Source: Raillietiella orientalis
Lineage: Eukaryota
Length of the DNA: 64,000 nucleotides
Direction of reading: 5' to 3'
Assembly: GCA_036172245.1 (NCBI GenBank)
Contig: JAYWIR010000001.1
Location: 7,998,001 to 8,062,000 of the forward strand
The first letter of the stretch is position 1. Each line of letters opens with the position of its first letter. Below are positions 13,921-46,952 of this stretch, piece after piece. The position numbers and the translations under genes are program-made. The notes beneath the pieces are model-generated. The model did no database searches and had not been told where the DNA came from. It saw nothing but the letters and a program-made list of their open reading frames with translations.

Positions 13921-14008
13921 TCGACACCGCAGATGCTTCACACACAATCACAATCCAAATAAATCGCTTTACACCAGGCGCGGAGGAGCGCTACAAAAAC
14001 ACGTCCGC

Positions 14009-16370
14009 ACGCCAAGTTGATAGCAGGGCTATGGGCTTCGCGTCTGGTGTAGGTGGCAGAATCCGTAATTAGCCCGGAGCACACTTATGCTGTTCCCGGG
14101 CGAAGTATGGATGCTAACCTCTTCTTCGCAAGCACATGGGTGCACCTGCAGAGAAGAGAGAAGAAAGGGATAGGGAAAGTCGGCATCCCCACATTGGGGC
14201 CGCCAGCCGGGCTGGGAAGGGACCCCCGGGCGGGGAAGGGGGCCCTAGCGCTCGCAGTCGATCTCCACAAGGCGTTCGACTGTGTAGACCAGGACCTCCT
14301 TTTGGAGCTCCTCCTGGTCCTTCCCACCCTCCCTGACTTCCTACCTGCGCTCTTGCTGGCGGAATGCGATGATTACCGTCTCTTTCAGTGGACAGAAGGT
14401 GTATGGCGTGCCGGTGCGGCGGGGCATAAGGCAGGGAGATAGCCTCAGCCCACTGCTCTTCAGCACCTACTTTGAGTTGGTGCTGAGAGCGTACAGGGTG
14501 ACTTTGCAGCTTTGCCGAGCTCGTGCCCCGGCACGCCCGCCGTAGCAGCGTACGCCGACGATCTTCTGCTCTTGTTGCCAATGTCCACCCCGGCAAAGGC
14601 GGTCGGTGACTTCTTCGATCTGCTCAGCCGCGGCACCGGACTGCAGGTTAACAGGGCAAAGTCGTCGGTTGTGCCAATAGGTGCGGCGTTGGCAAGGCAG
14701 CAGGACTGGGTCCGTCTGGGGATACCCACGGCGAGGTGCTTCAAGTACCTTGGTGTGCCGTTAAGGGACTACTCCCCTGCGTAAGCGTGGTGCAGCTGCC
14801 TCCTAAAAGTCGAGACGGCGATCGGCCCGTTCCTGGAAGGCAAGTTTCACTTGCCGGAACGGGCCGCGGTTTGGAACGCCTTCGCAGCCTCCATCCTCCG
14901 CCCCTTTCTTTTTGTTTGCCCTTCCACCGTGGAATCGAAGAAGAGGACAAAGGACCTCCGCCGTATCGCCCTTTGGGGCAAGCGGAGACCCCTAGTCCCT
15001 CTGAAGGACTTGTGCGCTCCGCGTCGGGACGGCGGTCTTGGCCTCCTGACGCTGTAGCGCGTGGAGAAGCAGCTGCGGTGGCGAACCCTCACCATCGCAG
15101 CGAAGATGTGGATCACCCCTTGGTGCACTCCAGCCCGCCTCCTGGCCAGCCGTGTGTCCCGGTGCGATGGACTCGCTTCTTTTCTTCTGAGCCGTGGCCG
15201 GAAGATGCGAAGATGCGGCCTACTGCTCGGGCGCATGGCAACATTGGCCAAGGAGAACAGCTGGATGGTTTGCTGCCCCGCCAACTCCCCCGCCTGGCTG
15301 GAGTAGAACATCGGAACGTGGGCAGTGGTGAATCAGAAAAGCCACGAAACGTGGAATCGTCTCCGATGCAGCCCCTACGCCCGCTGCACTCTGAGGAATC
15401 TCCTGGAGAATCCAGCCAGAAGCACGTGGGCAGAGACAACCTGCCTGGCTACGGCGCTGCCCTTCCTGAGAAGGGCGCTACACAGCAGTCGGACGCCAAG
15501 GTGGCAAGTCTCCTGCTGCATCGAGGGACATGAGAAGAGAATCATCGCCTGGACCATGGGTCAACTGGCGGACGCCACGACCCCGAGGGCCCAGCCGCGA
15601 GGACTAAGAAGATGGGGCGAGCTGCTGGCCATCCCTATGGATGTGCTGAAGTGGCCCCACTTCTTCAGGAATCCAGGATCCTGCCCCTTAAGTGGAAAGA
15701 GTCGGCGTTGCTGTTGTTGCATTGGGGTTTGCCCTGCAACGCACGCCGTTCTCACTGGAGAAGAGGAGTTGTGGATCCTGCGTGTGTCAGGTGCGGAAAG
15801 CGGGAATCGCTCTCCCACCTGATTGTTTACCTTGCTGCCCTTCGCCCCCTTTGGGAACGGTTTGGGACGATCCTCGGTCTCCTTACGGGCAGTTTCCCTA
15901 GAGACGTTCTACGGCTTCTCTTCGCGAAGGACGCCCTGCAGCCAGCCGCAACCCTTGCAGCCTTGTGCTGCGTCCCAGGCATCGTGGCGGCATGGAGCGA
16001 CACCAACAAGGAAGGAGTGGGTCAACACGCGAGGGATGTCATCCCATATTCCCAACGCTTCTTGCGGAGAGCTGCCGGATGGCCCCAACTGGGGAATATA
16101 CGGATGGACATCGAGGGCTTCCTTCAACGGATGGGCCCTCCTCTCAGCGAACAGTGATTCTTTTCCCTGCCCCCCAACCTTATTTGTTTGTCTGCGTTTT
16201 TTGTTTTTATTTTTTTTTTTTCCCCATCCCCTTTCGCTGACGGGGAGTGCCACGCCGGGCTGCGTCCCGGGGTCCCGGTAGTTCCCGTGCATAAGGCCGT
16301 GAGCGGGGCCTGGTACCGCGATTGTAGAGTTTTTCATAAATAAACGCCCCGGGCGTACCCGGGTTGCAAC
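14009..16370 (+). mobile_element. Subfamily F copy 1, distal half (RT from AKLIAG to the 3' end), degenerate
   Basis: AKLIAGLWASRL, KAFD, QGDSLSP, YADD and CVRCGKRESLSHL; 3' end aataaacgccccgggcgtacccgggttgcaac at 16339-16370. Confidence 0.9.
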
Positions 16371-16479
16371 GTCGAATCCCCGCTGTGGAGAGAGGACGTG
16401 CTTTTCCTGCGCTCCGCCTGCGTGGCAAGGCGAGTGGTTTTTTCTTGAGTGATTTGTGCGTGCATATCGTCGGTGTCCG

Positions 16480-18357
16480 ATGGCAGCGTTGCCAGAGGAC
16501 ACCGCGATGGAAGTAGGCGTGATGGAGGCTTGTTCGTCCCCACAGCCTACTGGATCAGGGGCATCCGCCCCGGAATCGTCCCCGGGGACGCCGAGGTCAT
16601 GGAGCGCCATGGTGGCCGCGCCTAGCGTTGAAGCCATGGCCGAGATGGAAGCCTACAAGAAAGCGGGGTATAAACCCTCGCTAGTCTACAAGGTAGGCAA
16701 CCTTTTCGATGGGCGTACTGCACGCGCCTTTACGAAGGCGCTGCAGAACGCCAATATCTTCGAAAAAGATCTGGACGGCCTCTGCGTCCTCAGCGGCGGG
16801 CAGCGGGTCGAGGTGGCATGCAAGGATATTACCTTGGCCCGACACCTGATCACCGACCCGCTGATCGTTGATGGTCGGAAGATCTTGCCGGTGACGATGG
16901 ACCTCTCGGTGGTGGTCCATCTCACAGGGATGTCCAGTCGCATGACTAGGTCAGCGGTTCGCGAACAGTTACAAAAGCACGCAGAAGTGCACGCGTTGTG
17001 GCCGAAGTCCACGATTTTCCAAGGCTACAATAGCCTTTTCGGAGGTCAAGCTGCGGCGCGTATCACCGTAAGAGAGGGTGGTGCGCTTCCCCACAAGCTG
17101 GAGGTCTGCCAAGAAGCGGTGGACCTCTGGTACGTGGGGAAACGCCAATTTTGTGGCTACTGCAATGCAGTAGGGCATCTACGAAAAAGGTGCCCGAACA
17201 TTGTGTGCCACCTATGCGGCGAAAAGGGTCACGTTCGGCGCGTGTGCCCCAAGCTCCCAACCCCGGTGCCCCCTGCCGCCAAAAAGGCGCAGGGAAAACG
17301 TGGAAAGCTGGTAGAAAGACCAGCTCGCGAAAATGGCCGTTCCCAACTGCCAGACTTCCTTCCTCCCGTGCAGACGTCGGAGGAAAGAGCTCCCGTGAAC
17401 GCGGAAATGGAGGAGGGTTGGCAGCTCGTTCAGGCCAGAAAAGAAAAAAAAAAGAAATTAATGCCAGAAGAAAAGTCGGAGAAGAAAACTGCCGGCAACA
17501 AGAAAAAAGCCGCGCCGCTTTCAAAAAAAAAACAACTCCGCGAATGCTCGGTGGCACTGGAACGCTAAGCCGTTCCTACCGAGTCCGCCCGCGGCAATGT
17601 TCGCGGAACAGCTGATGCGGACGCGATGAATACTCGCGTGGACGAGCCCATTCTACGTTTAGAGGGTGAGACGCGAGACTCGCGCGCCGACAGCCAGGAC
17701 GCCGTGCTCGATAAAGTCGCGGAGGAGCCCGCGGCAACGTTCGCCGTCAGCGATGACGCCGCGCTCGATAAGGTCACGGAGCAGCCCGCGGCAACGGTCG
17801 CCGCTGGGGAAGACGCGGCCTTCGAGAAAGCGACGCAGGAGCTCGCAGCAACGCTCGCCGAGCGCGAAACCCCGTCGCGCAAAGGCGTACGCAGGTCGGC
17901 TCCGACGAAGAAGGCCCACGCAGGTGACTGCGACCTGTGGGCCGGAAGCGGATCCTCCTCCTCGGAGGCACCCCCCAGGAAGTCTGGACGCAAGTCCCAG
18001 AAACCCAGGAGGCGCCTCCCCTCCACCAGCGAGGAGGAGAAGCAGGAAGGAAGCGGCAGCGTGGGAATCCCGGAGGGGGAATAACCACGCCCGGAAGCCG
18101 TCGAGTCGGCCACCTCCATGGAGGAGGGTGACCAGGGGGGTGAAGTCCTCCCTGCAGTCGCGAAACCTGAGCATCCCGAACCCATGGATTAGGGCGAACA
18201 GGTAGGCGCGACTCCACATGCGGGTGATCCGGCCGACGCGCCGGCACCGATGGAGGAGGAGGAACAGGTGCCTTCAGTACCTGTCCCCCCTCCCCCTCCA
18301 CCTAGCGTCCCGCCCCAGCATGTGGCGGACGACGCATCGCCGTTTTCCCAGGAGTAA
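16480..18357 (+). pseudogene. ORF1 of F2 with premature stops
   Basis: MAALPED start and two CCHC knuckles; in-frame stops at 17566, 18082 and 18190; natural end FSQE* at 18357. Confidence 0.85.
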
Positions 18358-19115
18358 CACCTGGGCTCGCCAGTCGCCGTCGGATTCGCGCCGCCTGTTG
18401 GAACGTCAACGGGCTGCGCGAAGACGGTAACAGGCGAGATACGGCCGACACCCTGCGTGAGCTCGACCTGGCGCTGCTGCAGGAGATCCACGTGATCACC
18501 GCGGCAGACGCCCAGGAGATCGAGACGATCGCGGGTGGTCGGTTGTATTGGCGATGCGGCCTCCGCAACACCTGCGGGGTCGCGTTCTTCGTGAAGCCCG
18601 CCATCGACGCTGCCGTAAAGGGCGTGCGGTTTGATGACCGCGGTCGGATCGGTCAGCTGATTCTCAGCTGGTCCGACTCGATCGACCTAATCCTCACAAA
18701 CGTGTATGGCCCCAGCGGCAAACAGGGGTACCGCGACCGCACCAGGCTGCTGGAAACCCAGAAGCGCGACTGGCGGGCGGATACCAATGTGCGAAAGGCT
18801 CACCTGATAGCGGGAGATTTCAATCGAGTGAGGACGTGTTTTTCTTCGCTCTCGTTTCCGTGCTTTCATCCGCTTCATCTTGGCGTCGTACATTTTGACG
18901 ACGATTTTGACCCAACCCGAAGCTACTGAAGTTGGAGGAACAGTATCCGGATCTGCAATCGCGGAACCGACAGCCGCCTCCACTTCGTCTTCCTCGCCGA
19001 TGGAGAGGAACTTGCTGACGGTGCTGCCACAGCAGCTGTCAAAGGGAAACCAATCGACGAGTCGGAGTTGCGGCCATACGTAGCCTAAGGCTATAGACCT
19101 GCCCTCCGATATAAG

Positions 19116-23800: not shown

Positions 23801-24415
23801 CTTGGCGCCTGGAAGACGAGTGAGTTGGCGGACGCCGCCACTCCTCGTGTTACTGCAAAGGGACTCCTCCGGTGGGCAGAAGAACTTGCTGTCACCCCCG
23901 AAGAACTTGTAGTCCCTCTACAGTGTATTGACAGTTCGCTGCTCCCCCTTGCTTGGAAACAAGCCGTGCTGCTTTTCGTTCACTGGGGTTTTCAGTGCAA
24001 CGAGCGTTGGCATCGCTACTCCGGGGGACTTGCGTCTGCGAACTGCGTTCGGTGCGGATCGACGGAGTCGATTCCGCACCTACTTCTGGACTGCGGTGTC
24101 CTACAAGGACTGTGGCGTAGGCTGGCAACAGCACTAATGCATCCCGTGGACACCGCAAGAGACTTGCTGCCACGATTCTTCACGCCGAGCGGGCTGTCAC
24201 TAAGCGCAAGGATTGCAACCATCGGTTGCATACGCGCGATAGTTTCCGTCCGCCAGGCGTTGGTAATCAACGGACAGCACCAAGAGGTAATCAGCAAAGC
24301 ATCCTTCAACATGGGAGCATCCGCTAGATGGCCTCATTTGACAGAGGAGACAAAAAGGAATCTCGCCGCAATACACCGCCGGTTTACACACCCTCAGCAG
24401 CGGCCAACCCGGTGA
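20825..24415 (+). pseudogene. ORF2 APE-RT of E with a single nonsense codon
   Basis: ORFs 20825..23242 and 23276..24415 are in frame, separated by TGA at a conserved Trp (NALW); YTDD; CVRCGSTESIPHLLLDC. Confidence 0.92.
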
Positions 24416-25988
24416 TCATTGCCCTACCCTCCATAAACTATTTTTTTATTTTCTTTTTACATCCGCGTCCCCATAGCATATGGAACATTTTAGGTGCTCA
24501 TCGTTTAAATCCCCGTGAGTACGGAGCCTAACCAAAAACCCGTTACCCTTCCCTCCAGTTTTTGATTTTTGTTTGTTTCCCCTCATTCCTCCCACGCTGC
24601 GAGCGGTTTGTTTACCAGGCCTGCGTGCCGGTAATTTTTCTATGTTCCCTGTCGTTCTGTTGATTGGGGACATTGTCCCTGACCAGGTTTTTGTTATTAA
24701 TAAACGCCCCGGCTTGACCGGGTGATAAATTTCAATCTCCGCCTGCTAACATGTGAGCCGGGAACGCGAAAGAACGCGATGAACGAGTTGTGCGCCGCCT
24801 TGCGTGCGCGCAGCTTTTTCGCAATTGAGCGGGGAATGGTCCACAGCATCGTCTGGTCGATGCTGTGGACCTCGACACCGACCTTTGTTCGCGGGTCGGC
24901 AAGCGTAGGAGGGTTGCGTCGACGTTGTCGGACCATTCCCGGCTAATTTTCGAGATGCGGCCTCGCGACAAAGGACCGCCATCCAGGGACTGGCGTCTCC
25001 CCGGGGACTGGACGCGCATCTCAGGTGCAAAGGTACACCTTCGCGAATACCTGAGAGGCGTCACGCTCCGGAATCTCCAGGACTGGGACCTTTTTAAGGA
25101 ATCGGTCCGCGAGTTATGCGAGCAGTTCTCCCTGGATCGCCTGCCCTTCGGATTTGGCGAGGGTGCTCGCAACCATCGAGCATATTTACAGGCCCGTCGT
25201 TACGAGAGAACCCCAAATGTCCGTTGCTTGGCCGAGTACCGCGCTGGGGCCGAACGCCAAGCCTGGCAATCCGGGTCGGCCAGCTTGCTGGACGACCAGG
25301 GCCGGGAATGTTCGTCCCCGGTGTCGGTACGGCATCTCGTGAGAAGATTTTATTCATGCCTTTACGCCAGGACGCCTCCGTACCAAGATGCCTCTCGGCG
25401 CTTGTTCCCGGATGGTGCCCTGGGGATAGGGGAAGAGGAGTCGGTAAGCCTCGACGAGCCTTTCACTGCCGGTGAAATTCTCGCCAGTATCAAAAGGCTC
25501 AATAGGCGTATGGCGTCAAAGAAGGATACCTTGCCCGCGGAGTTCTTTCAGTGCTTCGAGGAAGAGCTTGCCCTCCTGCTGCTCGTGTTGACAAGGCTGA
25601 TCCGAGACGAAGGCGATGTTCCCGCCTCGTAAAGGTCAGCCAGAGTGAGGCTCCTTCCGAAAGGGGGAGACCTCAGGAAATTGCATAACTGGCGTCCGAT
25701 CACCATCGTGAACACGGACGCCAAGTTGCTAGCAGGGTTATGGGCTTCGCGTTTAGGGCAGGTGGCAGAGTCCATAATTAGCCCGGAGTAGACCTATGCT
25801 GTTCCCGGGCGAAGTATGGACGCCAACCTCTTCTTCGCAAGCACGTGGATGCACCTGCAAAGGAGAGAAAAGAAAGGGAAAGGGAAAATCGGCAACCCCA
25901 CATTGGGGCCGCCATTGGGGCTGGGAATGGACACCCGGGCGGAGAGGGGGGCCGTAGCGCTCGCAGTCGATCTCCATAAGGCGTTCGA

Positions 25989-28342
25989 TTTTCACCCGGA
26001 TTTCGCCGGGGCGTTTATTGTAAAATAAACTTTTACAAAGACGTGCGGTGGCTGGACCATTGCTCCAGCCACGCACGAAAAAACACAGAGCCTGCCGGGT
26101 CACCGGTTCGCAGACCGGTACGGTCCACCACGGCAGCAGGGGGAAGGGGGAAAAACAAAAAAAACAAAACAAAAAAGAAAAGAAAAATTGGGAGGGTAAG
26201 GGAAGGGATCACAGTTGCTGGTGGGGCCGTTGCATCCTTTGCAGGATGCCGGCAAGCTCCTTCTGTATTCCTGGATCCAGGTGGGGCCATCGGGACGCCC
26301 TCCTCAGGAACTGAGAGGCTGGCTGGATGGCACCCTGGTCGCGTTGTCCTTTCGTAGCCTTGCTTCAAGCGGTGACGATCCCGCGTAGGCAGCACAAAGC
26401 TGCTAACGAGGCCGCTGGCCGAAGGGCGTCGGCAACGAAGAGGGCTTTCAGTGCGTCCCTGGGGTTGCCGCAGGGGATTCCGATGGCCGCGGCAAAGCGA
26501 AACCAAAGGGGCCGAAGGGCAACACAATCCACTAGCAGGTGGGGGAGGGAATCCCGTTCCCCACACCTGACGCAATTGGGGTCCACCGTTCCCCAGGTCC
26601 AGTGGTGTCGGCGGGCGTTGCAGAAGAGTCCCCAGTGCTGCAACAGGAGAGCCGACTCCTGCCATTTTAAGGGTAGGGCGGAAGTGTTCATGAGCACCGG
26701 GGGCCACTTCAGATGTTCAATGGGAACATCGAGCAGCGCGCCCCAGCGCAGAAGTCCATTGGGAGGCGCACTCGGGGTCGCAGCGTCTGTTAACTGGCCC
26801 GTCTTCCACTCTCCTATCTTCTTCTCCTTTCCGGAGATTGTTACTGTTACCACCCACTTCGCCGCAACATCGCTGTCCAGATCTTCCATCAGGGAGGGCA
26901 GCGCAGCAGCGAGGGGGGTTCTTCCTGCCCACGCTCTCTTCTTTGTATCCTCCAGGATCTCGCGGAGCGTGCAACTTCTGTAACCCCCAAACAGGAACCT
27001 TCGTTCCTGTTGGGAGCGTTGCATGCCGAACTGTCCCACGTTCGAACGGTTTCCTGCAACCAGGCACTACCGTTAAACGGGCGACAGGTGAGCAATCCTG
27101 GGTTTTTCCGATACAACGCAGCCACCCTCCGTAGCTGGAGTCCGCATCGGTTGACGCGGCGACGGAGTGCAAGAAACGACGTCAGTCCCGTCTTGCCGGT
27201 GGCTTGCTGGAGAAGGAGACGTGCAGGGACGCACCAACAGGTGCACCACAACTCTGGAACGAGTGCCGACAAGCGGAACTGGAGCTGAAGCTCCAGCCGC
27301 TCCAGCGTCAGGAGGCCCAGACCACCATCCCGACGAGGAGCGCACAAGTCCTTTAAGCGGACTCGGGCCCTCCCGTTGCCCCAAAGGGCGATACGGAGGA
27401 GGTCCTTCGTCCGCTTTTTGATCCTCTCTGTGGGAGGGCGAACAAAAAGCAGGGAGCGGAGGAGAGGAGCCGCGAACGTGTTCCAAACCGCGGCCCGTTC
27501 AGGCAGGAAAAACCTGCCGCCTCGGAACGGGCCGATAGCCGTCTCTACTTTTTGGAGGCAGCCGGACCACGCTTCCGCAGGGGAGTAGTCCCCCAACGGC
27601 ACACCAAGGTACTTGAAGTACCTCACCGTGGGGATCCCCAAACGGACCCAGTCCTGCTGCCCTGCCCACGCCGCACCAACTGGCATCACGGACGACTTCT
27701 CCCTGTTCACCGTAAGTCCGGTTCCCCGATGCAGCAGGTCGAAGAACTCCTCGACCGCCGCAGCCGGGGTGGACATAGGGAGCAGCAGCAGAAGGTCGTC
27801 CCCGTATGCTGAAACGGCCGGAGTACCGGCACAGTCGGGCGGCAGGTGCGCCAGAGTTCCCCTGTACGCTCTCAGTACCAACTAAAAGTAGGTACTGAAG
27901 AGCAAGGGGCTCAGGCTGTCTCCCTGCCGGATCCCACGCCGCACCGGCACGCCGTGCACGGTCTGCCCGCTGGAAGTAACGTTGATGAGCGCGTCGCGCC
28001 AGCGGGAGCGCAGATAGGCCACAAATGAGGCCAGGAAGCCCAAGCGTTCCAGAAGCTCCAGAAGGAGATTCTGGTCGACGCAATCGAATGCTTTTCGCAA
28101 GTCGATTGCGACCGCAAGGGCTCCCTCCCCCACCCGACCATCCAACCCCTTGCCGGCGCATGCACCGGAATTCCGGCTGCGCACCAAGCTCCTTTCATGT
28201 TGGAGCTCTAGCCAGGTGGAAGCGTGGAACAGGTTCGCCTCCATGCTTCGCCCGGGAACAGCATATGTCTGTTCCGGGCTGATGAAGATGTTGGCAACCC
28301 GACCCAGACGCTCTGCCCAAACCTTAGCCAGCAACTTGGCGT
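25989..28342 (-). mobile_element. Subfamily B copy 1, distal part; antisense in KAFD of F2 and cut by A2 at DAKL
   Basis: 3' end aataaacgccccggcgaaatccgggtgaaa (minus, 25990-26019); RT motifs AKVWAERL, KAFD, QGDSLSP and YGDD; CVRCGERDSLPHL. Confidence 0.9.
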
Positions 28343-28370
28343 GCGGACGTGTTTTTGTAGCGCTCCTCCG
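28343..28370 (+). promoter_or_regulatory. Conserved 5'-terminal motif (G/A)GACGTG(T/C)TTT..CGCTC, putative internal promoter (example copy)
   Basis: Found within ~6 nt of the 5' end in 9 elements. Function is inferred. Confidence 0.6.
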
Positions 28371-28430
28371 CGCCTGGTGTAAAGCGATTTATTTGGATTG
28401 TGATTGTGTGTGAAGCATCTGCGGTGTCGA

Positions 28431-30452
28431 ATGGCAGAAATGCCTGAGGACACCGCGATGGATATAGGAGGGGGAGAGGCTTGCTCCTCTCCCCAACCCA
28501 CGGAGGTGGGGGCAATCGCCCATACGGAGGCGACGGCAGCCGCACCCCTGAAAAAGGGGGCAACCGCCGCCTCGAAAGCGAGGGCAAAGGCCCCCTTGAA
28601 AAAGGGGGCAAAAGCCCCGCTGGAACAGGGTGCAACCGCCCCCTTGAAAAAGGGGACAACCGCAACCCTGGAAAAGGGCGCAACCGCCTCCTTGAAAAAG
28701 GGGGCACCTGCACCCTCGAATGCGTCTTCGGCATCGCCGAAGACCTGGAGTTCAGTGGCTGCAGCCCCATCTCCTGCAGCCCTCGCCGAGCAGAAAGCCT
28801 ACCTGGAGCAGGGATACAAGCCGTCCCTGATATACAAGATAGGCAATCTGTTTGTCGGGAACACCGCTCGCAACTTCGAAAGGGAGTTGCAGCGGTTGAA
28901 CGTAAAAGAGGAAGACCTGGAAGGTCTTTCCGTGTTGAGTTGTGGTCAGCGGGTGGAGCTGACTTGCAGAAATGCAAGCCTTGCTCAACACCTCCTGAAT
29001 ACGCCAATCACACTGGAAGGCCGAAAGGTTTTCTTGGTGACGGAGGATCGCTCCGTGGTGACGCACCTCACGGGAGTCACCCTCCGCATGTCGAAAGCCG
29101 ACGTGCAGGAGGAACTCGGAAAATACGGAACGGTTCACGCGCTATGGCCCAAGCCCAACGTCTTCCAGAGTTACGGAAGACTGTTTAGTGGCATGGCTGG
29201 TGCGCGTGTAACCGTCCACGAAAACGGTGGGCTACCCCACAAACTAGACGTCGGCAACGAGACCGTCGACGTCTGGTACGTGGGCAAGCCCAAGTACTGT
29301 GGACACTGTGATGCCACAGGGCACCTGAAAAAGCGGTGCCCTCACATCCAGTGTTTCCACTGTGGAGAGAAGGGCCACCTCCGCAAAGTGTGCCCGAAGC
29401 GCGAACCTCCGGCTCCCGCTGCCTTGAAAAATTCCAAAGGGAAACGCGCGGAGGCTACGGAAAACCCTGCGAAGGCACCCGTGAGGCGGAACCCACAGCC
29501 GGAGCCCGAGACCGTGCAGCAAACGCCGGTCGTGGAATCTACCGACGACGCTGAAAAGAGAGAAGGCTGGCAGAAGGCGAAGCCTAAAGCCAAGAAAATT
29601 AAGAAAACCGAAGGGTCGACAGCGGAACCCGCGACGTCTCCTTTAAATAGGAGACAAAGCCGCGCGTTGATCCGCGAATGTTCGGTCGCTTTGGAGCGTG
29701 TGGAGGTACCCGAGACCGCCACCGGGGGCGATATCCCCCGCGTCGACGCCGACGATAACGCGATTGCGGAAGGCGAACCCTCTGTGCAAACAGAGGGGGA
29801 ACCGCGCGACGCGCTCGCCGCGATCGACGAGGCCGCCTTCCAGCAGGCGGCGGAAGAGCTCGCGGCCGAACTCGCCGACCGTGAGAACGGCGCGCGAAAG
29901 GCCTTGCGAAGGCCGGCCGCGACCAGGGCACCTCCGACAGGTGACCACGACCCGGATGCCGGAAGTGCGTCCTCTTCCACGGAGGCGCCTCCGAAGAAGA
30001 CTGGACGGAAGTCCAAGAATCCCAAGAGGCGCATCCCGACGAAGAGCGAGGGGGACGTACCGGCAGCCGAGGGGGAAGCCGGCAGCGTGGGAACGGAGGA
30101 AGGAATTTTCCCACCCTCCGCCACCGAGCAGCCGGCCACCCCCATGGAGGAGGGGGAGCAGGCAGGGCATTGCCTCCCCCTTCCACCGGTGGAGCCTGCG
30201 GAGAAGATGGTCATGGAAGAGGGGGAGCAGTCAGCTGAGAACCGCTCCCACCTGCCGTCCAACGCAGTCAAGGAATCGGCCCCCAAGGAAGAGGGGAAGC
30301 AGGTGCGTGAAGCATGCTCCCTTCAACCGTTGCGGTCCGCCGAGGAATCGGCCCCCATGGAGGTGGGAGAACCGCTGGGCGGTGCCCCCATGCCTCCATC
30401 CGTCCCGCCCGACCAGGTGGCGGGAGCCCCATTGCCACTTTCCCGGGAATAA
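28431..30452 (+). CDS. ORF1 of A2 (673 aa)
   Basis: Differs from A1 ORF1 at two residues in the ORF track; two CCHC knuckles. Confidence 0.9.
   Translation: MAEMPEDTAMDIGGGEACSSPQPTEVGAIAHTEATAAAPLKKGATAASKARAKAPLKKGAKAPLEQGATAPLKKGTTATLEKGATASLKKGAPAPSNASSASPKTWSSVAAAPSPAALAEQKAYLEQGYKPSLIYKIGNLFVGNTARNFERELQRLNVKEEDLEGLSVLSCGQRVELTCRNASLAQHLLNTPITLEGRKVFLVTEDRSVVTHLTGVTLRMSKADVQEELGKYGTVHALWPKPNVFQSYGRLFSGMAGARVTVHENGGLPHKLDVGNETVDVWYVGKPKYCGHCDATGHLKKRCPHIQCFHCGEKGHLRKVCPKREPPAPAALKNSKGKRAEATENPAKAPVRRNPQPEPETVQQTPVVESTDDAEKREGWQKAKPKAKKIKKTEGSTAEPATSPLNRRQSRALIRECSVALERVEVPETATGGDIPRVDADDNAIAEGEPSVQTEGEPRDALAAIDEAAFQQAAEELAAELADRENGARKALRRPAATRAPPTGDHDPDAGSASSSTEAPPKKTGRKSKNPKRRIPTKSEGDVPAAEGEAGSVGTEEGIFPPSATEQPATPMEEGEQAGHCLPLPPVEPAEKMVMEEGEQSAENRSHLPSNAVKESAPKEEGKQVREACSLQPLRSAEESAPMEVGEPLGGAPMPPSVPPDQVAGAPLPLSRE
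28545..28710 (+). repeat. Six coding repeats (L-K/E-K/Q-G-A/T-x-A, mostly 27-bp period) in the A ORF1 N-terminus
   Basis: ttgaaaaagggggcaaccgcc-like units; also at ~13640-13805 (minus) and ~44855-45025. Confidence 0.85.
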
Positions 30453-33400
30453 CACCTGGGATCGCCTGTCGCCGTCGATTGCGTGTGGCATGCTGGAACG
30501 TCCACGGGCTGCGCGACGACAGCAACAGACGGGACACGGCAGCCACCCTGCGTGACTTCGACCTGGCACTCCTGCAGGAGATCCACGTGATCACCGGGGA
30601 GAACGCCCAGGAGATCGAGAGGATCGCAGAAGGGCGGCTGGTGTGGCAATGCGGCACCCGATACACCTGCGGCGTCGCGTTTTTTATGAAACCGGCGGTC
30701 GACGCTGCCGTGAAGGGCGTGCGCTTCGACGAAGCCGGTCGTGTCGGGCAGCTGATTCTCAGATGGTCCGACACGATCGACCTCGTCGTAACAAACGTAT
30801 ACGCCCCGAGCGGTTATAACAGGTAACGGGAACGCGCGGCGTTCCTGGAAAGCGTGAAGCACGACTGGCTGGTGGAAGCGAACGTGCGCGTGGCTCACCT
30901 GATAGCAGGAGACTTTAATCTCCGCCTGCTATCAGGTGAGCCACACGCACAGGAACGGACGGCTAACGTGTTGTGCGCCGCCATGCGCACGCGCAACTTG
31001 TTAGGGGATCTTTCAAAAATGGTCAGCAGCATCGACCACGTCTTCCTGGACGTCGACCTGTGCTGGCGGGTCGGTAAACGGGGGAAAGTTGCGTCGGAAC
31101 TGTCTGACCATTCCAGATTGATACTCGAGGTGTGCCCGCGCGACAAGGGACCCACGTCCAGGGCGTGGCGGTTGCCTGGTGACTGGACGCGCCTCTCAGG
31201 TGCAAAGGAACACCTTCGCGAATTCCTGAGAGGCGTCACCCTCCCCGGTCTCAAAGATTGGGACCTCTTCAAGGCCTCGGTCCGCGAATTCTGCGAGGAG
31301 TTCCCCCTGCACCGCCTGCCCCCCGGATTTAAGTAGGGGGCTCGGAACCATAGGGCCTATTTACAGGCCCGCCGGTACGAGAGGACGCACAATGTACGTC
31401 GCCTGGCAGAGTACCGAGCCGGGGCCGAACGTCAAGCCTGGCAATCCGGATCGGCCAGCTTGCTGGACGACCAGGGCCGGGAGCACTTAGCTCCGGCTAG
31501 AATACGGCACATCGTACGGCGTTATTATTCCTGCCTTTACGCCAGGGCGCCCCCGGACCAAGATGCCTCTGGGCGCTCACTTCCGAGCGGTGCCCCGGCA
31601 ATATGGGAGGAGGAGAAGGAAAGTCTCGACGAGCCTTTTATCACCGGCGATGTTCTCGCCGGTATCCAAAGGCTCAAGAGGCGGAAAGAACCAGGGGAGG
31701 ACGGCCTGCCTGCGGAGTTTTTTCAATGCTTCGCGGCAGAGTTGGCACCCCTAGTGCTTGAGTTGACAAGGCTGATCCGAGATGAAGGCGATGTACCCGC
31801 CTCTTTTCGGTCAGCCAGAGTGAGGCTCCTTCCGAAAGGAGGAGACCTCAGGAAACTCAGCAACTGGCGTCCGATCACAATTGTGAAGACGGACGACAAG
31901 TTGATCGCCGGACTGTGGGCTTCGCGTCTGGGGCAGGTGGCCAATTCCATAATTAGCCCGGAGTAGACTTACGCTGTTTCCGGGCGAAGTATGTAGGCCA
32001 CCTCTTCTTCGCGAGCACATGGTTTCATGTGCAGAGTAGTGAAGGATTGGCAGCCCCGCTTTGGGGGCGTCAGCCGGGCAGGGACAGGACTCCCAGGTGG
32101 GGAAGGGAGCCTTAGCGATGGCAGTCGATCTGCATAAAGCGTTTCACTGCGTGGACCAGGATCTCCTGCTGGAGCTCCTGGGACGCATGGGCTTCCCTCC
32201 CTCCCTACTGACCTACCTGCGCTCTTGCTGGCGCAGCGCGCTGATCAATATCTCTTTCAGAGGTCAAATGGCGTACAGCGTGCCGGTACGGCGGGGCATA
32301 CGGCAGGGCGACAGCCTCAGTCCCCTGCTTTTTAGCACCTACTTTGAGTTGGTGCTGAGAGCGTATAGGGTGACGTTGGCCCCCTTGCCGAACTCGTGCC
32401 CCGGCAGGCCCGCCGTAGCAGCGTACGCCGACGATCTTCTGCTTTTGTTGCCGATGTCCATCCCGGCAAAGGCATTCGAGGATTTCTTCGACCTGCTTAA
32501 CCGCGGAACCGGACTGCAGGTTAACAAGGCGAAGTCGTCGGTGGTACCAGACGGTGCGACGTGAGCTTGGCAGCAGGACTGGGTCCGTTTGGGGATCCCC
32601 TCGGCAAGGTGCTTGAAGTACCTCTGTGTGCCGTTGGGGGATTACTCCCCTTCGGATGCGTGGTCCGGCTGCCTCCAAAAAGTGGAAACGGCGATCGGCC
32701 CGTTCTTGGAAGACAAGTTCCTGCTTCCGGAACGGGCCGCGGTGTGGAACTCCTTTGCGGTTCCCATCCTCCGCCCCCTGCTTTTTGTTTGCCCCGTCCC
32801 CAGGGACATGAAGAAAAGGACGAAGGACCTCCTGAGGTTTTCCCTTTGGGGAAGAGGGAGGCCCCGAGTCCATTAGAAGGACTTGTGTGCTCCACGTTGG
32901 GATGGCGGTCTGAGCCTCTTGACGCTGGAGAGAGTAGAAATCCAGCTGCGATGGCGCACCCTGGCCATCGCAGCGAAGTTATGCAGCAACCCATGGTGCG
33001 TTGAGGCCCGACTCCTTGCCAGCCGTGTATCCGGAACGGAAGGTCTGGCGTCTCATCTTCTGTGCCGCCACTCGAAGATCAAGAGATGCGGACTCCTCCT
33101 GGGACGCAAGGCAACCCTGGCAAACGAAAACGGCTGGATGGAATGCAGCCCCGCCAACTCCTCCGCATGGTTGGAGGAGACAGCTGGCACGTGGGCGAAG
33201 ATAAACCAGAAGAACGGAGAGATGTGGAACTGCCTGCGACGCGGCGCCTATTCCCGCTACACTCTGCGGATGATACTCCAGTGTCCCGCGAGAAGCACGT
33301 GTGCAGAGACAACCCCCCTAGCTACGGCGATGCCCTTCCTGAGGAGGGCGCTCTCCAGGAGCCGCAAGCCTAGGTGGCAAGTCTCCTGCCGCATCGCAGG

Positions 33401-34021
33401 CAAGGAGAAGTTGATCAGCGGCTGGTCCACGGGCGAACTGGCGGACGCCAGTACCCATAGTGTACAGGCGAGAGGACTGCAGAGATGGGGCGAGCTACTC
33501 GGCATCCAGCCGGATGACCTGAAGTGGCCCCCGGTATTAATTGGATCTAGGATCCTCCCCCTGAAGTGGCAGGATTCGGCGCTTCTGTTGTTGCATTGGG
33601 GTCTACCCTGCAACGCACGCCGCCACCACTGGACCAGGGGTCGAGTAGATCCTACCTGCATCAGGTGTGGGGAACGGGAAACTCTCCACCACCTCCATGT
33701 TGATTGTGCTGCCTCCGGCCCTCGTGGGAACATCTTCGTGCCTCCCTACGGATCCAGGAAGGCTGCAAGCCCAGAGACGTTTTTCGGCTTCTGTTCGTGC
33801 ATGATGCCCTGCGTCCAGCCGCTACCCTGACTGCACTTTGCCGCGTACGCGGGATTGTGACGTGCTGGAGCAACGTCAGAAGACCGAGGCACGACAGGGA
33901 TACCGCCGTACTTGCAGTCCGCTACCTGCGGATTGCGACCAGATGGCCCCACCTGGGAAATATACGCACGGACCTCGAGCGCATCCTGCCAAGGATGGAC
34001 CCTCCTCCCAGTGGTCAGTGA
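30452..34021 (+). pseudogene. ORF2 APE-RT of A2, disrupted
   Basis: All APE/RT motifs are in order, with stops at 30826, 31336, 31966, 32876 and frameshifts. Confidence 0.92.
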
Positions 34022-34228
34022 TCCCTCCCCAACCCTCCCAAATCTTTTTGTTTTAATGTTTTATTTTTCTTTTTGTTTTTTCCCCCACCCCCTTCCGCTG
34101 CCGAGGAGAGTCGCGCCGGTCTGCGTACCGGCGACCCGGCAGGTCCAGTTGAGTTGGCCGCAGTGGGGCCTCGTACCGCGAATGAAAGAGAATTTTTAAT
34201 AAACGCCCCGGCGTGACCGGGTGGCAAC

Positions 34229-37200
34229 TAGCAACTTGGCGTCCGTATTCACGATCGTGATCGGACGCCAGTTCTTTAAATCCCTAAGGTCTCCCCCTTT
34301 CGGAAGGAGCCTCACTCTGGCTGACCGAAACGAGGCGGGAACATCACCTTCGTCTCGGATCAGCCTGATCAACTTAAGCAGCAGGGGTGCCAGCTCTTCC
34401 GCGAAGCTCTGAAAGAACTCCGCGGGCAAGCCGTCTTCCCCTGGAGCTTTACGCCTTTTGAGCCTTTTGATACGGGCGATAATTTCGCCGGTGGTAAAAG
34501 GCTCGTCGAGGCTTTCCATCTCCTCCTCCCCTATTGCCGGGGCGCCATCCGGAAGCAAGCGCCGAGAGGCGTTTCGATCCGGGGGCTCCCTGGCGTAAAG
34601 GGAGGAATAAAAACTCCGCAAGAGATGCCGTACCGACGCCGGGGAAGAACATTCCCGGCCCTGGTCGTCCAGCAAGCTGTCCGACCCGGATTGCCAGGCT
34701 TGGCGTTCGGCCCCGGCGCGGTACTCGGCCAGGCGACGGACATTAGGGGTTCTCTCGTACCTACGAGCCTGTAAATAGGCCCGATGGTTGCGAGCAGCCT
34801 CGCCGAATCCGGGGGGCAGGCGATCCAGGGGGAACTGCTCACAGAACTCGCGGACCGATTCCTTAAAAAGGTCCCAGTCCTGGAGATTCCGGAGCGTGAC
34901 ACCTCTCAGGTATTCGCGAAGGTATTCCTTCGCACCTGAGAGTCGCGTCCAGTCCCCCGGCAGACGCCAATCCCTGGATGGCGGTCCCTTGTCACGAGGC
35001 CGCATCTCGAAAATTAACCGCGAATGGTCCGACAACGTCGACGCAACCCTCCCCCGTTTGCCGACCCGTGAACACAGGTCAGCGTCGAGGAAGACGTGGT
35101 CGATGCTGCGGACCATTCCCCTCTCACCCGCGAACAAGTTGCGCGCACGCATGGCGGCGCACAACTCGTTCATCGCGTTCTCTTGTGTTTCTGGCTCACC
35201 TGATAGCAGACGGAGATTGGAATCTCCCGCTATCAGGTGAGCCTTCCGCACGTTCGTGTCCGCCAGCCAGTCGCGCTTCAGGGAATCCAGCAGCCTGGTA
35301 CGGTCGCTGTATCCCTGTTTACCACTGGGGGCGTACACATTCGTGACGATCAATTCGATCGAGTCGGACCAGCTGAGAATCAGCTGACCGACCCGACCGT
35401 CGTTATCGAAGCGCACGCCCTTCACGGCCGCGTCGATGGACGGCTTCACGAAGAACGCGACTCCGCAGGTGTTACGGAGGCCGCACCGCCAATACAGCCG
35501 ACCCCCCGCGATCGTTTCGATCTCCTGGGCGTCTGCCGCGGTGATCACGTGGATCTCCTGCAGCAGGGCCAGGTCGAGCTCACGCAGGGTGTCGGCCGTA
35601 TCTCGCCTGTTACCGTCGTCGCGCAGTCCGTTGACGTTCCAACAGGCGGCGCGAATCCGACGGCGACTGGCGAGCCCAGGTGTTATTCCTGGGAAGATGG
35701 CGATGCGGCGTCCGCCACCTGCTGGGGCGGGACGCTAGGTGGAGGAGGAGGGTCAGGCGCTGCGTGCACCTGGTCCCCCTCCTCCATGGGTAACGGCGCG
35801 TCGAGGGGGTCACCCTTGAGTGGGGTGGCGCCTACCTGTTGGCCCTCCTCCATGGGGGCGGGCTGTTCAGGCTCGGCGACTGCAGGGAGGACTTCGCCCC
35901 CCTGCTCACCCTCCTCCATGGGGGTGGCCGGCTCGAAGGCTTCCGCGCGTGGGAGTTCCCCCTCCGGGATTCCCACGCTACCGCTACCTTCCTGCTTCTC
36001 CTCCTCGCTGGTGGAGGGGAGGCGCCTCCTGGGTTTCTGGGACTTGCGTCCCGACTTCCTGGGGGTGCCTCCGAGGAGGAGGATGCACTTCCGGCCCCCA
36101 GGTCCGACTCACCTGTGGGGGCCTTTTTCGCGGGAGCCGGCCTTCGCACGGCCTTGCGTGAGGGGTTCTCACGCTCCGCCAGCGTGGCCGCGAGCTCCTC
36201 CGCCGCCTTTGCGAACGCGGCGTCCGCAGTGTCGACCGGCGCGTCGCGCGGCTCACCCTCTGTGTAAACAGAGGGTTTGCCGTCGCGAACCTCGGGCGCG
36301 GCGGAAACGGCGAGGGAATTCTCGTCGCCCCGGGTGGCAATCTCGGGAACGGCTATGCGCTCCAGTGCTACCGTACACTCCCGCATGGTCTTAGAGCGCG
36401 GCCCAGGTTTTTTCGCCTTGCCGGCTGTCTTTTTTACCGCTTTTGCGGGTTCCGCGGGGGGCACCGTTTTCTCCTTCCTGGCCTTGACCAGCTGCCAGCC
36501 GTCTTGGACTCCCGCGTCTTCGGAGGGTTTTTCTTCCGACGCCTGTGTGGGAGGAACAGGGGCTAGCGGCTGCTGCCGGCCAGTATCTCTTTTTGGTCTT
36601 TCGACCAGTTTACTGCGTTTTGCCTGTGCTTTTTTTGCAGCAGGCGGCACCGGAGTGGGGTGTTTAGGGCATGCGCGGCGTACGTGGCCCTTCTCCCCGC
36701 ATAAGTGGCACACAATGTTTGCGCACCGCTTGCGCAAGTGTCCTACTGCATTGCAGTAGCCACAAAAGCGGGGTTTCCCCACGTACCAGAGGTCTACGAC
36801 TTCGCCATTGACCTCTAGTTTGTGGGGAAGCCCACTGTCGTTCACCGTCACGCGCGCGGCGGCCTGCCCTCCGAAAAGGCTATCGTAGCCATCGAAGATT
36901 GTGGCCTTTGGCCAAAGCGCGTGAACATCCCCGTACTTTCTTAACTGATCACCAACCGCAGACCGCGTCATGCGGCTGGTGATCCCTGTCAGATGGACCA
37001 CTACGGAGCGGTCCATCGTGACTGGTAGGATCTTGCGTCCGTTCACGTTCAGCGGGGTGGTTATCAAGCTTTGCGCCAAGGTGATGTCCTTGCAGACAAC
37101 CTCAACGCGCTGACCCCCGCTTAGCACGGATAGACCGTCAAGGTCCTTTTCTAACACGTTGGCGTTCTGCAGCGCTTTCGAAAAAGCGCGTGCAGTTCGC

Positions 37201-37526
37201 CCGTCAAAGAGATTGCCTACCTGGTAAACCAAGCTGGGCTTGTACCCAGCTGCCCGGTAGGCCGCCATCTCGGCCATGGTTTCCGCGCTCGGCGCGGCCA
37301 CCATGGCGCTCCAGCTCCTCGCCTTGAGCGGCAAGGGCGATTCCGGGGCGGACGCCCCTGATTCTGTAGGCTGTGGGGGTGGGCAAGCCTCCCCCACACC
37401 TACCTCCATCGTGGTGTCCTCAGGCATCGCTGCCATCGGACACCAACGATGTTCCACACCAAACAACACAAGAAAAAACCGCTTCCTGTCGACTCACTCG
37501 GGAGCGAAGGAAAAACACGTCCACTC
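34229..37526 (-). mobile_element. Subfamily F copy 3, proximal half (5' end, ORF1, APE, start of RT), cut by A2 at DAKL
   Basis: 5' gagtggacgtgttttt at 37526; ORF1 37436-35683 with one frameshift near 36065; ORF2 open from 35683 to NTDAKLL at ~34230. Confidence 0.92.
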
Positions 37527-41888: not shown

Positions 41889-42286
41889 GACCGTCGCTGA
41901 TGCGTGAGACGGGAGATGTTCCCGCTTCTTTCCGCTCAGCAAACGTGCGGTTCCTGCCGAAAGGCGGGGATTTCCGCCATCTCAGCAACTGGCGTCCGAT
42001 CACCTTGGTGAATTCGGACGTCAAGTTGTTCTCCAAGCTATGGGTCGCGCGCATGGGGAGAATTTCGGAGTCCTTGGTAACTCCGGAGTAGACGTATGCT
42101 GTTCCGGTGCGGTCCAAGGACGCGAATCTCTTCTTCGCGCGAACATGGTTCGAGTTGCAGCGGCGCGTGGCGCAACAGAGCCAGACAGCCGAAATCGCCG
42201 CTGCCAAAGGTAAGCGGCGGTGTTCAAGGTACGATGGAACGCCGGGAGCCCTAGCGATCGCAGTCGATCTCCACAAGGCGTTCGAT
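41889..42286 (+). mobile_element. C/E-like RT fragment (K), bounded by H and B2 insertions
   Basis: MRETGDVPASFRSA, NWRPITLVNSDVKLF, and AVDLHKAFD at the right end. Confidence 0.85.
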
Positions 42287-44652
42287 TTTCACCCGGATTT
42301 CGCCGGGGCGTTTATTATAAAACAAACATTTACAAAGACGTGCAGTGGCTGGACCATTGCTCCAGCCACGCACGAAGAAACACAGAGCCTGCCGGGTCAC
42401 CGGTTCGCAGACCGTTACGGTCCACCACGGCAGCAGGGGGAAGGGGGAAAAACAAAAAAAAAAAAAACAAAACAAAACAAAAAAGAAAAAGAAAAGTTGG
42501 GAGGGTAAGGGAAGGGATCACAGTTGCTGGTGGGGCCGTTGCATCCTTTGCAGGATGCCGGCAAGCTCCTTCTGTATTCCTGGATCCAGGTGGGGCCATC
42601 GGGACGCCCTCCTCAGGAACTGGGAGGCTGGCTGGATGGCACCCTGGTCGCGTTGTCCTCCCGTAGCCTTGCTCCAAGCGGTGACGATCCCGCGTAGGCA
42701 GCACAAAGCTGCTAACGAGGCCGCTGGCCGAAGGGCGTCGGCAACGAAGAGGGCTTTCAGTGCGTCCCTGGGGTTGCGGCAGGGGATTCCGATGGCCGCG
42801 GCAAAGCGAAACCAAAGGGGCCGAAGGGCAACACAATCCACTAGCAGGTGGGGGAGGGACTCCCGTTCCCCACACCTGACGCAATTGGGGTCCACCGCTC
42901 CCCAGGTCCAGTGGTGTCGGCGGGCGTTGCAGGGGAGTCCCCAGTGCTGCAACAGGAGAGCCGACTCCTGCCATTTTAAGAAGAGGGCGGAAGTGTTCAT
43001 GAGCACCGGGGGCCACTTCAGATGTTCAATGGGAACATAGAGCAGCGCGCCCCAGCGCAGAAGTCCATTGGGAGGCGTACTCGGGGTCGCAGCGTCTGTT
43101 AACTGGCCCGTCTTCCACTCTCCTATCTTCTTCTCCTTTCCGGAGATTGTTACTGTAACCACCCACTTCGCCGCAACATCGCTGTCCAGATCTTCCATCA
43201 GGGAGGGCAGCGCAGCAGCGAGGGGGGTTCTTCCTGCCCACGCTCTCTTCTTTGGATCCTCCAGGATCTCGCGGAGCGTGCAACTTCTGTAACCCCCAAA
43301 CAGGAACCTTCGTTCCTGTTGGGAGCGTTGCATGCCGAACTGTCCCCACGTTCGAACGGTTTCCTGCAACCAGGCACTACCGTTCAACGGGCGACAGGTG
43401 AGCAATCCTGGGTTTTTCCGATACAGCGCAGCCATCCTCCGTAGCTGGAGTCAGCATCGGTTGACGCGGCGACGGAGTGCAAGAAACGACGTGAGTCCCG
43501 TCTTGCCGGTGGCTTGCTGGAGAAGGAGACGTGCAGGGACGCACCAACAGGTGCACCACAGCTCTGGAACGAGTGCCGACAAGCGGAACTGGAGCTGAAG
43601 CTCCAGCCGCTTCAGCGTCAGGAGGCCCAGACCACCATCCCGACGAGGAGCGCACAAGTCCTTTAAGCGGACTCGGGCCCTCCCGTTGCCCCAAAGGGCG
43701 ATACGGAGAAGGTCCTTCGTCCGCTTTTTGATCCTCTCTGTGGGGGGGCAAACAAAAAGCAGGGAGCGGAGGAGAGGAGCCGCGAACGTGTTCCAAACCG
43801 CGGCCCGTTCAGGCAGGAAAAACCTGCCGCCTCGGAACGGGCCGATAGCCGTCTCTACTTTTTGGAGGCAGCCGGACCACGCTTCCGCAGGGGAGTAGTC
43901 CCCCAACGGCACACCAAGGTACTTGAAGTACCTCACCGTGGGGATCCCCAAACGGACCCAGTCCTGCTGCCCTGCCCACGCCGCACCAACTGGCATCACG
44001 GACGACTTCGCCCTGTTCACCGTCAGTCCTGTTCCCCGACTCAGCAGGTCGAAGAACTCCTCGACCGCCGAAGCCGGGGTGGACATAGGGAGCAGCAGCA
44101 GAAGATCGTCCGCGTATGCCGAAACCGCAGGCGTACCGGGAAAATCGCACGGCAGGTGCGCCATAGTCTCCCTGTACGCTCTCAGCACCAATTCGAAATA
44201 GGCGCTGAAGAGCAGGGAGCTCAGGCTGTCTCCCTGCCGTATGCCGCGTCGCACCGGTACGCCGTACACGGTGGATCCACTAAAAAAAACATTAATAAGC
44301 GCGTCGCGCCAGCTGGAGCGCAGGTAGGCCAGCAAAGAGGCCGGGAAGCCCAAGCGTTCCAGAAGCTCCAAAAGGAGATTCTGGTCGACGCAATCGAATG
44401 CTTTATGCAAATGGACTGCGACCGCGAGAACTCCTCTCCCCTCCCGACCATACCGTCCCCCACCGACGGACGCACCGGAATTCCGGTTGCTTATTATGCT
44501 CCTTCCTTGTTGGAGCTCTAACCATGTGGAAGCGTGGAACAGGTTCGCCTCCATGCTCCGCCCGGGAACAGCATAAGTCTGTTCCGGGCTGATGAAGATG
44601 TTGGCAACCCGTCCCAGACGCTCTGCCCACATCTTGGCTATCAACTTGGCGT
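42287..44652 (-). mobile_element. Subfamily B copy 2, distal part; antisense in KAFD of K and cut by A3 at DAKL
   Basis: Same 3' end as B1 (42287-42317); RT with YADD; ORF 42518..43435 with CVRCGERESLPHLLVDC. Confidence 0.9.
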
Positions 44653-44740
44653 GCGGACGTGTTTTTTCCGCGCTCCTCTGCGCCTGTTGTAAAGCGTTCT
44701 TTTTCGGTAGTGGTTGTGTGTGGAGCATCTGCGGTGTCCA

Positions 44741-46762: not shown

Positions 46763-46952
46763 CACCTGGGCTCGCCTGTCGCCGTCGATTACGCGTGGCC
46801 TGCTGGAACGTGAACGGGCTGCGCGACGACGGCAACAGACGGGACACGGCCGCCACCCTGCGTGACTTCGACCTGGCACTCCTGCAGGAGATCCACGTGA
46901 TCACCGCGGAGAACGCCCAGGAGATCCAAAGGATCGCAGGGGAACGGTTGAT

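Follow-up and report, generated by a model that had tools for sequence, protein, structure and literature searches.

Here we describe a long interspersed nuclear element (LINE) subfamily, A, in a 64,000-nucleotide (nt) stretch of the Raillietiella orientalis assembly GCA_036172245.1 (contig JAYWIR010000001.1, positions 7,998,001 to 8,062,000 of the forward strand; hereafter the window). Our survey of elements covered this one window, which contains three A copies (A1, A2 and A3). All three adjoin their hosts, which are other LINEs, at one identical nucleotide and with the same orientation, within the codons for the reverse transcriptase (RT) motif DAKL in the second open reading frame (ORF2). 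We consider it likely that A is an L1-clade lineage that inserts by sequence-specific target-primed reverse transcription (TPRT) at the DAKL codons of other LINE ORF2s. Judging from the sequence, at least two and probably three separate A events would have hit different host subfamilies, namely an E5-like host, the F-like host B and the host B'.

A junctions at the DAKL codons

The A copies start at 14008 (-), 28343 (+) and 44653 (+), where each adjoins ACGCCAAGTTG and lies antisense to the host ORF2. At all three junctions, the reverse complement of the A 5' untranslated region (UTR; ...AAAAACACGTCCGC) runs straight into this 11-mer. The 11-mer encodes D-A-K-L of the RT motif NWRPITxVNxDAKL, which aligns to human L1 NFRPISLMNIDAKI, and its context reads ..GTGAACACGGACGCCAAGTTGCTAGCAGG.. 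in the target. An earlier note on this DNA had claimed that each A 5' end joins the 11-mer at an identical position while the hosts continue differently, and both observations hold. The nucleotide is the same in 3/3 copies and the antisense orientation in 3/3, and right past the junction the host ORF2s diverge into ATAGCAGGG, CTGGCTAAG and ATAGCCAAG (Table 1). Similarity breaks exactly at the element end, as A1 and A2 are identical through ...GTTG, whereas their hosts are only ~60% alike from the next base.

The 3' ends of A show the same sequence. The 11-mer follows both visible A 3' ends (34231 and 8202), and the 3' junction of A3 falls outside the window. A2 thus has both junctions at the target with exact matches, and A1 has one exact match and one of 10/11 (8191-8201). 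Past the 11-mer at the A2 3' end, the host continues from ORF2 amino acid (aa) 492 down to aa 8, through ORF1 and up to a LINE 5' end at 37524; past the one at the A1 3' end, 12 more host-like bases follow. The 11-mer beyond the A 3' ends looks like a target-site duplication. Its length is in keeping with repeats of 9 and 11 nt at further insertions in the window (G, H and R), such as ATTTCAATC for G in E5 (18817-18825 and 24729-24737) and GCAGTGCCGAC for H in F (55030-55040 and 60532-60542). The next four bases are also alike (CTAG/CTTG beside the A 3' ends, ATAG/CTGG in the hosts), so that the repeat may be as long as 15 nt, with a nick as much as 4 nt further on.

Allowing at most one mismatch, the 11-mer occurs 16 times in the window against 1.15 expected, and none of 100 shuffled sequences reached 16. 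Fourteen of these matches are homologous DAKL positions of LINE ORF2 copies; they comprise 12 distinct sites plus the partner copies at 34232 and 8191. Three of the 12 sites are occupied by A and nine are empty (10448, 22269, 25718, 31893, 38101, 42018, 50381, 58156 and 62219), the latter including all four empty examples that the earlier note had listed.

A is a full-length LINE of ~5.8-5.9 kb and thus more than its ORF1, with a 5' end of the type GCGGACGTGTTTTTGTAGCGCTCC and a 3' end of the type ..CCGGGTGGCAAC.AG. A3 has interruptions at 46944 and 54379 and extends beyond the window at its 3' end. ORF1 is intact in all three copies, and its 682-aa product matches zf-CCHC in each of them (E about 2e-4, just above the cut-off). 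Near the ORF1 N-terminus there is a 24-nt (8-codon) tandem repeat (28460-28744 and 44770-45078). A1 and A2 have in-frame ORF2 stops in common, TAA at A coordinate 2482 and TAG at 2992 and 3622 (window positions 30824, 31334 and 31964 in A2), and A3 ORF2 contains at least two in-frame stops that differ from these. This means that the copies seen are not autonomous; they may have decayed, or the A lineage may keep ORF1 and use a helper ORF2. An alternative genetic code with TAA and TAG as sense codons was rejected as an explanation of the stops, since ORFs end in TAA, TAG and TGA alike, and it is also contradicted by the 1192-codon ORF2 of R, which has no internal TAA or TAG.

Aligned with the 5' ends of G, E5 and M (GAGTGAGGACGTG and GCGTACGGACGTG among those compared), the A 5' end probably begins GCGTGCGGACGTG, so that at least 4 nt of the 11-mer probably belong to A as well. 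As microhomology, this overlap of the A 5' end with the 11-mer may reach 4-8 nt. A related pattern is seen in B_E, an E5-like element whose 5' end (37523-37544) reads CTTGGCGAGTGGACGTG and adjoins a non-DAKL site (ORF2 aa ~294 of K). Its CTTGGCG looks like a carried-over piece of the DAKL repeat, as if the parent element had been transcribed from inside such a repeat. The 5' end of E5 (16376-16391) is preceded by a 14-nt spacer that contains GAATCCCC and resembles the same aa-294 site.

These 5' ends bear on a model without endonuclease specificity, in which A RNA begins (CTTG)GCGT and its cDNA end ...ACGCCAAG anneals to a nearby DAKL sequence, so that only the 5' joint is specific. The probable start of A within the 11-mer would fit such annealing, as would the CTTGGCG of B_E at a place where there is no DAKL site. 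However, TPRT starts at the 3' junction, and both visible 3' junctions of A also lie at the DAKL 11-mer; moreover, other subfamilies of the window reuse positions at their 3' junctions (R'/R and B/B', see below). Annealing alone is thus a very improbable source of the constant position.

Under site-specific TPRT, an endonuclease of the apurinic/apyrimidinic endonuclease (APE) type would nick the host sense strand just after ...ACGCCAAGTTG or, as the next bases are ambiguous, 2-4 nt further. Given the ORF2 stops, the enzyme would be A's own or that of a close helper. The 3' OH would prime cDNA synthesis on A RNA, which would fix the antisense orientation, and a cut in the second strand 11-15 nt upstream would create the flanking repeat. 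The full-length cDNA end ...ACGC(CAAG) would match the target, allowing a homology-aided 5' joint at a constant nucleotide. In a later step, the inverted A1 and A2 would have recombined.

Beyond the window, exact-pattern scans of metagenome contigs gave no match for the A/DAKL junction and none for the 3' hairpin motif. The one sequencing run found, X1 (share 0.15), is a DNA run from a relative, in which most pieces were 90-95% alike to the window; no RNA run came up. An empty DAKL site of the B type was present on one X1 contig, with a loose end at 44652, and no further A junctions were found on the X1 contigs. Contig depth in X1 was 0.16-1.3 over A ORF1 (28336-30336) versus 3-24 over host LINE parts; at ≥90% likeness, this A lineage may be missing from the X1 relative.

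Table 1. Positions of the A copies, their junctions and their hosts in the window.
Feature	Position	Strand	Description
ACGCCAAGTTG, A1 5' junction	14009..14019	+	DAKL codons of host1
ACGCCAAGTTG, A2 5' junction	28332..28342	-	DAKL codons of host2
ACGCCAAGTTG, A3 5' junction	44642..44652	-	DAKL codons of host3
ACGCCAAGTTG, A2 3' junction	34232..34242	-	second copy of the 11-nt repeat, exact
Host stub beside A1 3' end	8179..8201	+	23 nt of host ORF2 ending ACGCGAAGTTG; 22/23 nt match F; unrelated sequence beyond
Empty DAKL site in F	62219..62229	-	F is the nearest relative of host2-down
Empty DAKL site in E5	25718..25728	+	E5 is the nearest relative of host1-down and host2-up
host1-down	14009..16375	+	E5-like LINE ORF2, DAKL (aa ~480) to 3' end
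host2-down (B)	25990..28342	-	ORF2, DAKL to 3' end; first ~900 nt F-like; 3' end abuts the KAFD site of E5
host2-up (B_E)	34243..37524	-	E5-like LINE 5' half: 5' end, ORF1, ORF2 aa 8-492
host3 (B')	42287..44652	-	ORF2, DAKL to 3' end; 3' end abuts the KAFD site of element N
A1	8202..14008	-	full-length A-type LINE; 5' end 14008, 3' end 8202; ORF1 11899-13947 (682 aa, CCHC knuckle); ORF2 remnants 8443-11893
A2	28343..34231	+	full-length A-type LINE; ORF1 28404-30452; ORF2 30458-33707 with in-frame TAA/TAG stops; 3' end ...GGGTGGCAACTAG
A3, first part	44653..46943	+	5' UTR, intact ORF1 44714-46762 (682 aa), ORF2 aa 8-65
A3, second part	53760..54378	+	ORF2 aa 64-274, after the R'/R insertion; stops where F inserted

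Host lineages and the number of insertions

If A had inserted independently into different LINEs, the phylogeny of the hosts need not follow that of A. We created a host-flank tree from the 600 nt downstream of the DAKL site in all 12 copies. Host1 grouped with the empty E5 (99/97; 88% identity) and host2 with the empty F (100/99), with host3 outside them (99/98). Forcing the three occupied hosts into a single clade cost 240 log-likelihood units and was rejected by the approximately unbiased (AU) test (p-AU 6.8e-12). The A copies, on the other hand, group as (A1,A2),A3. A1 and A2 are identical at 2646/2650 nt over their first 2.65 kb, beyond which identity drops to 93.2% (1464/1570) and then to 82.5% (1264/1533), and A3 matches A2 at 1938/2287 nt, in line with the earlier view of A3 as clearly diverged. 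The two phylogenies are thus incongruent. The opposite outcome considered in the earlier note, flanks that form one lineage congruent with the A copies, is rejected by the same test. The A1 and A2 flanks do look exchanged (see below).

The coding sequence of A points in the same direction. A2 and A3 ORF1 differ at 326 positions, distributed 95/72/159 over the first, second and third codon positions, with no indels and no stops in 682 codons, and the ratio of nonsynonymous to synonymous divergence (dN/dS) is 0.37. This points to divergence under purifying selection and indicates that the A2 and A3 lineages diverged while functional, unlike decaying duplicates of one insertion. The dN/dS values calculated on frameshifted ORF2 segments were discarded because of implausible proportions of synonymous differences (about 0.6 for A1/A2, and 0.25 for host2/F despite 96% identity). 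Host tree, AU test and ORF1 dN/dS together support independent, sequence-specific insertion, as the earlier note had argued, with two events firm and a third probable.

Several points weigh against this reading. Four of the empty sites match the 11-mer exactly (10448, 25718, 38101 and 62219). There are just three A copies in one 64-kb window, one of them with its 3' junction outside, and the upstream host beside A1 amounts to only 23 nt. A ORF2 is not intact in any A copy seen. Both the host and the A lineages are mosaic, and trees of single segments may mislead. Finally, near the junction host2 resembles host3 (72-95%) about as closely as A2 resembles A3 (73-95%), and one shared event would fit this for that pair.

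Such a shared event would be one ancient A insertion, followed by segmental duplication of the composite and later gene conversion that diversified the host flanks. Besides the similar divergence of hosts and A copies, the conversion or recombination that is evident here speaks for it, both in A1/A2 (4 differences in 2650 nt, then 93% and 82%) and in the mosaics of F, host2 and host3. However, conversion tracts from empty donors would have to halt 0-11 nt from the junction in every copy while leaving A undeleted. The occupied hosts do not form one clade, and host1 and host2 each have an empty nearest relative. An ORF1 that after 326 changes has acquired no stop or indel is also unlike the neutral drift of a dead duplicate. 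We regard a single insertion as quite improbable.

The exchange of flanks concerns A1 and A2, which form a pair of inverted repeats separated by 14 kb. A2 has a different host subfamily on each side, and the switch occurs at the A insertion. The upstream flank is E5-like (86% to E5, 56-73% to F; inside the E5/K clade, 97/97), and the downstream flank is F-like (94-100% for ~900 nt; 48-71% to E5). A reciprocal exchange between A1 and A2 that swapped their flanks, equivalent to an inversion of 14009-28342, would be the simplest account and best explains this pattern. Undoing the exchange yields two coherent insertions, one of A in an E5-like element (34243-37524 + 14009-16375) and one of A in the F-like element B (8179-8201 + 25990-28342). 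By its pattern, the near-identity of A1 and A2 (2.65 kb with 4 differences) is a recombination or conversion tract and no sign of recent copying. Alternatively, the assembler may have flipped the 14009-28342 segment.

A flip of this kind would be possible because 2.65 kb of near-identical inverted repeats could let an assembler invert the 14 kb between them, and the head-to-head arrangement is also what 5' inversions of L1 look like. It is nevertheless hardly conceivable that the junctions as a whole are an assembly artefact of inverted repeats or the product of twin priming of a single LINE. A flip alters only the pairing of flanks with A copies and not the junctions, and A3 lies outside the repeat pair. 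The inverted part comes from a subfamily other than that of the host and is complete from its 5' end to a 3' end of its own; the inverted and direct parts are not consecutive segments of one RNA, and twin priming was rejected on these grounds.

F, host2-down and host3 (60.5-62.3, 26-28.3 and 42.3-44.7 kb, respectively) are mosaic along their length. Over the ~900 nt that follow DAKL, host2 is F-like (94-100%); the next ~350 nt are 98-100% alike in all three, and in the distal part host2 and host3 are 97-99% alike whereas F is at 60-80%. This mosaicism fits recombination or template switching in the RT core.

The similarity of B and B', which are 97-100% alike over their 3' 1.7 kb, bears on whether these two hosts were hit separately. 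A might have entered a B-type LINE once and then spread as a passenger, retrotransposed inside B transcripts (host2-down and host3), with the E5-like host hit separately. In favour of this, the shared KAFD end position of B and B' is what products of one family would show, and a 5'-truncated composite copy would account for the 23-nt upstream stub at A1. Yet host2-down resembles F (96% over 600 nt) and not host3 (~85%) from the first base past the 11-mer onwards, and the DAKL site of F is empty. A passenger would also not retain a 682-codon ORF1 at dN/dS 0.37, though A2 ORF1 may have been overwritten from A1. Passenger spread therefore appears unlikely. Returning to independent insertion at DAKL, two events, in the E5-like host and in the F-like/B' hosts, are firmly supported by the flanks, and a third event separating B from B' is probable. 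As the host lineages are mosaic, only two events can be called firm.

Other LINE subfamilies and the surrounding island

A is not the only subfamily in the window that reuses a position. B and B' both end immediately after ...GATCTCCA(T/C)AAGGCGTTCGA, which encodes the RT motif K-A-F-D; the junctions are 25989/25990 in E5 and 42286/42287 in N. The two hosts of these 3' ends are only 70.6% alike. The B-type 3' ends (...CCGGGTGAAA) are found at 25969-25990 and 42266-42287, and six other KAFD sites are empty. A third position lies in the endonuclease region of A3, where the 5'-truncated R' (46953-48038) and the near-full R (48048 to ~53757) are inserted in tandem and antisense. The 9-mer ACGGTTGAT occurs three times around R' and R (46944-46952, 48039-48047 and 53760-53768), as if a regenerated target had been hit twice. 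Among the 12 scorable nested or abutting LINE pairs between 8 and 64 kb, 11 are antisense to the host (A three times, B twice, R', R, F, H, B_E/K and M/N); the single sense-oriented pair is G in E5 (18826-24728).

These insertions lie in a region that consists almost entirely of LINEs. GC content is ~41-46% over 1-6 kb versus 57-64% from 8 kb to the window end. From ~6 to 64 kb, nearly all sequence is pieces of nested LINEs, probably of the L1 clade, on both strands. A tblastn map with an intact 1192-aa ORF2 (48275-51853, -) as the query revealed ~20 nested ORF2/ORF1 segments over 6-64 kb, and A ORF2 aligns to this reference over aa 8-1095. ORFs of 770-1192 aa carry Exo_endo_phos and RVT_1 domains, which were both detected in four ORF2s (5.8e-16 and 1.2e-22 for 48275-51853), and the ORF1s contain a CCHC knuckle. 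The solved structure most closely related to the 1192-aa ORF2 is human L1 ORF2p (8sxt, E 9.5e-44, compared with 1.5e-16 for R2). Its NWRPITLVNADVKL aligns to L1 NFRPISLMNIDAKI and its DLRKAFD to L1 IDAEKAFD. A protein search with the intact ORF2 gave five matches at E ≤ 1e-20, the best with 25% identity.

The LINEs of the cluster also resemble each other at their ends. Their 5' ends begin ..GGACGTGTTTTT, and their 3' ends have the form AATAAACGCCCCGGCG-N-CCGGGTG plus a short tail; a poly(A) tail was seen on none of the 12 listed 3' ends. By eye, a CCCGG..CCGGG palindrome and a subfamily-specific tail of ~5-15 nt close the 3' ends (e.g., 34198-34231, 26004-25990 and 48076-48048). These common 3' ends look like a 'stringent' 3' recognition element. 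RNAalifold recovered no hairpin from ten LINE 3' ends, for which the windows were badly cut.

The left edge of the island (1-8180) has ~42% GC and no long ORFs. It contains old, diverged LINE fragments at 4549-4985 and 6365-7758, as well as a LINE 3'-end fragment at 7868-8141. The latter was considered as the missing 3' part of E5 and rejected, as it is R-like (67%).

The reuse of positions by A, B and R might be part of a wider pattern. As a tentative proposal, the window may contain a guild of LINE subfamilies, each with nucleotide-precise antisense targeting of a different conserved endonuclease or RT motif of its siblings (A at DAKL, B at KAFD and R at a site in the APE domain). As active elements need these motifs, the targets could not mutate away. 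Each insertion would disable a competitor and recreate a target, resulting in a self-growing, GC-rich, LINE-only island comparable to those that act as centromeres in some algae.

Relation to known LINEs

The known targets of site-specific LINEs are rRNA genes, telomeres, small RNA genes, microsatellites and one DNA transposon. For R2, a ribozyme and co-transcript model has been proposed in which target-like sequence at the RNA 5' end helps to form the 5' joint. A resembles R1 and R2 in its use of one nucleotide position, a fixed orientation and a conserved multicopy target, and in a 5' joint that would be aided by target-like sequence at the RNA 5' end. It differs in that R1 and R2 target rRNA genes, and R2 does so with a restriction-like endonuclease, whereas the target here is a protein-coding retrotransposon motif and several subfamilies seem to use different positions.

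A close parallel is Tx1L of Xenopus laevis, a member of the Tx1 group in the L1 clade. In the available parts of the sources, its endonuclease is described as highly specific and its target as a site inside another transposon (PMC1950540, PMC6719617). As far as these parts go, Tx1L and A, which is probably of the L1 type too, are both APE-type elements with two ORFs, and both would insert at one sequence inside another transposable element. However, Tx1L targets the DNA transposon Tx1D and A the RT gene of sibling LINEs, and the nicking specificity of A is one that we infer.

The best solved relative, human LINE-1 ORF2p, aligns its IDAKI and EKAFD with DAKL and KAFD. According to the portion of the source consulted, the nicks made by human L1 follow a loose TTTT/AA consensus and occur at very many sites (PMC1950540). 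This differs from the one defined site proposed for A, and the nearest database proteins are only ~25% identical.

Nested clusters of LINEs have been described for Zepp and ZeppL, L1-clade LINEs that, in the accessible parts of the literature, insert into existing copies, form GC-rich nested clusters and mark centromeres in some green algae (PMC8226300, PMC3446292, bioRxiv 10.1101/2025.03.28.645958, 10.1101/2022.06.16.496473). Zepp has 61% GC versus 53% in the genome, as given in excerpts of two of these (PMC8226300, PMC3446292). The cluster studied here is likewise made of nested copies of the elements themselves, with ~60% GC against ~42% in the left flank. According to the text available, (A)n tails are present on Zepp and L1-1_CR (PMC3747384), whereas the elements here lack poly(A) and have 3' ends formed by AATAAACGCCCCGGCG..CCGGGTG plus a short tail. 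No nucleotide-level RT-motif target is described in the parts of the Zepp/ZeppL literature that we examined. Likewise, our literature searches did not find a LINE that targets the RT motif of other LINEs, which is no proof of absence as they covered parts of the sources and not the original Zepp papers and supplements.

Nested islands of the Zepp type are thus known, and the parts of the literature examined leave their homing to existing copies unexplained at the nucleotide level. If our reading of A is true, the self-nesting of LINE clusters would have a simple molecular cause, namely a LINE that targets a constrained RT motif of its relatives. Such a LINE would also illustrate competition of one transposon with another, and elements such as A would supply APE-type endonucleases whose recognition sequences are long and defined.

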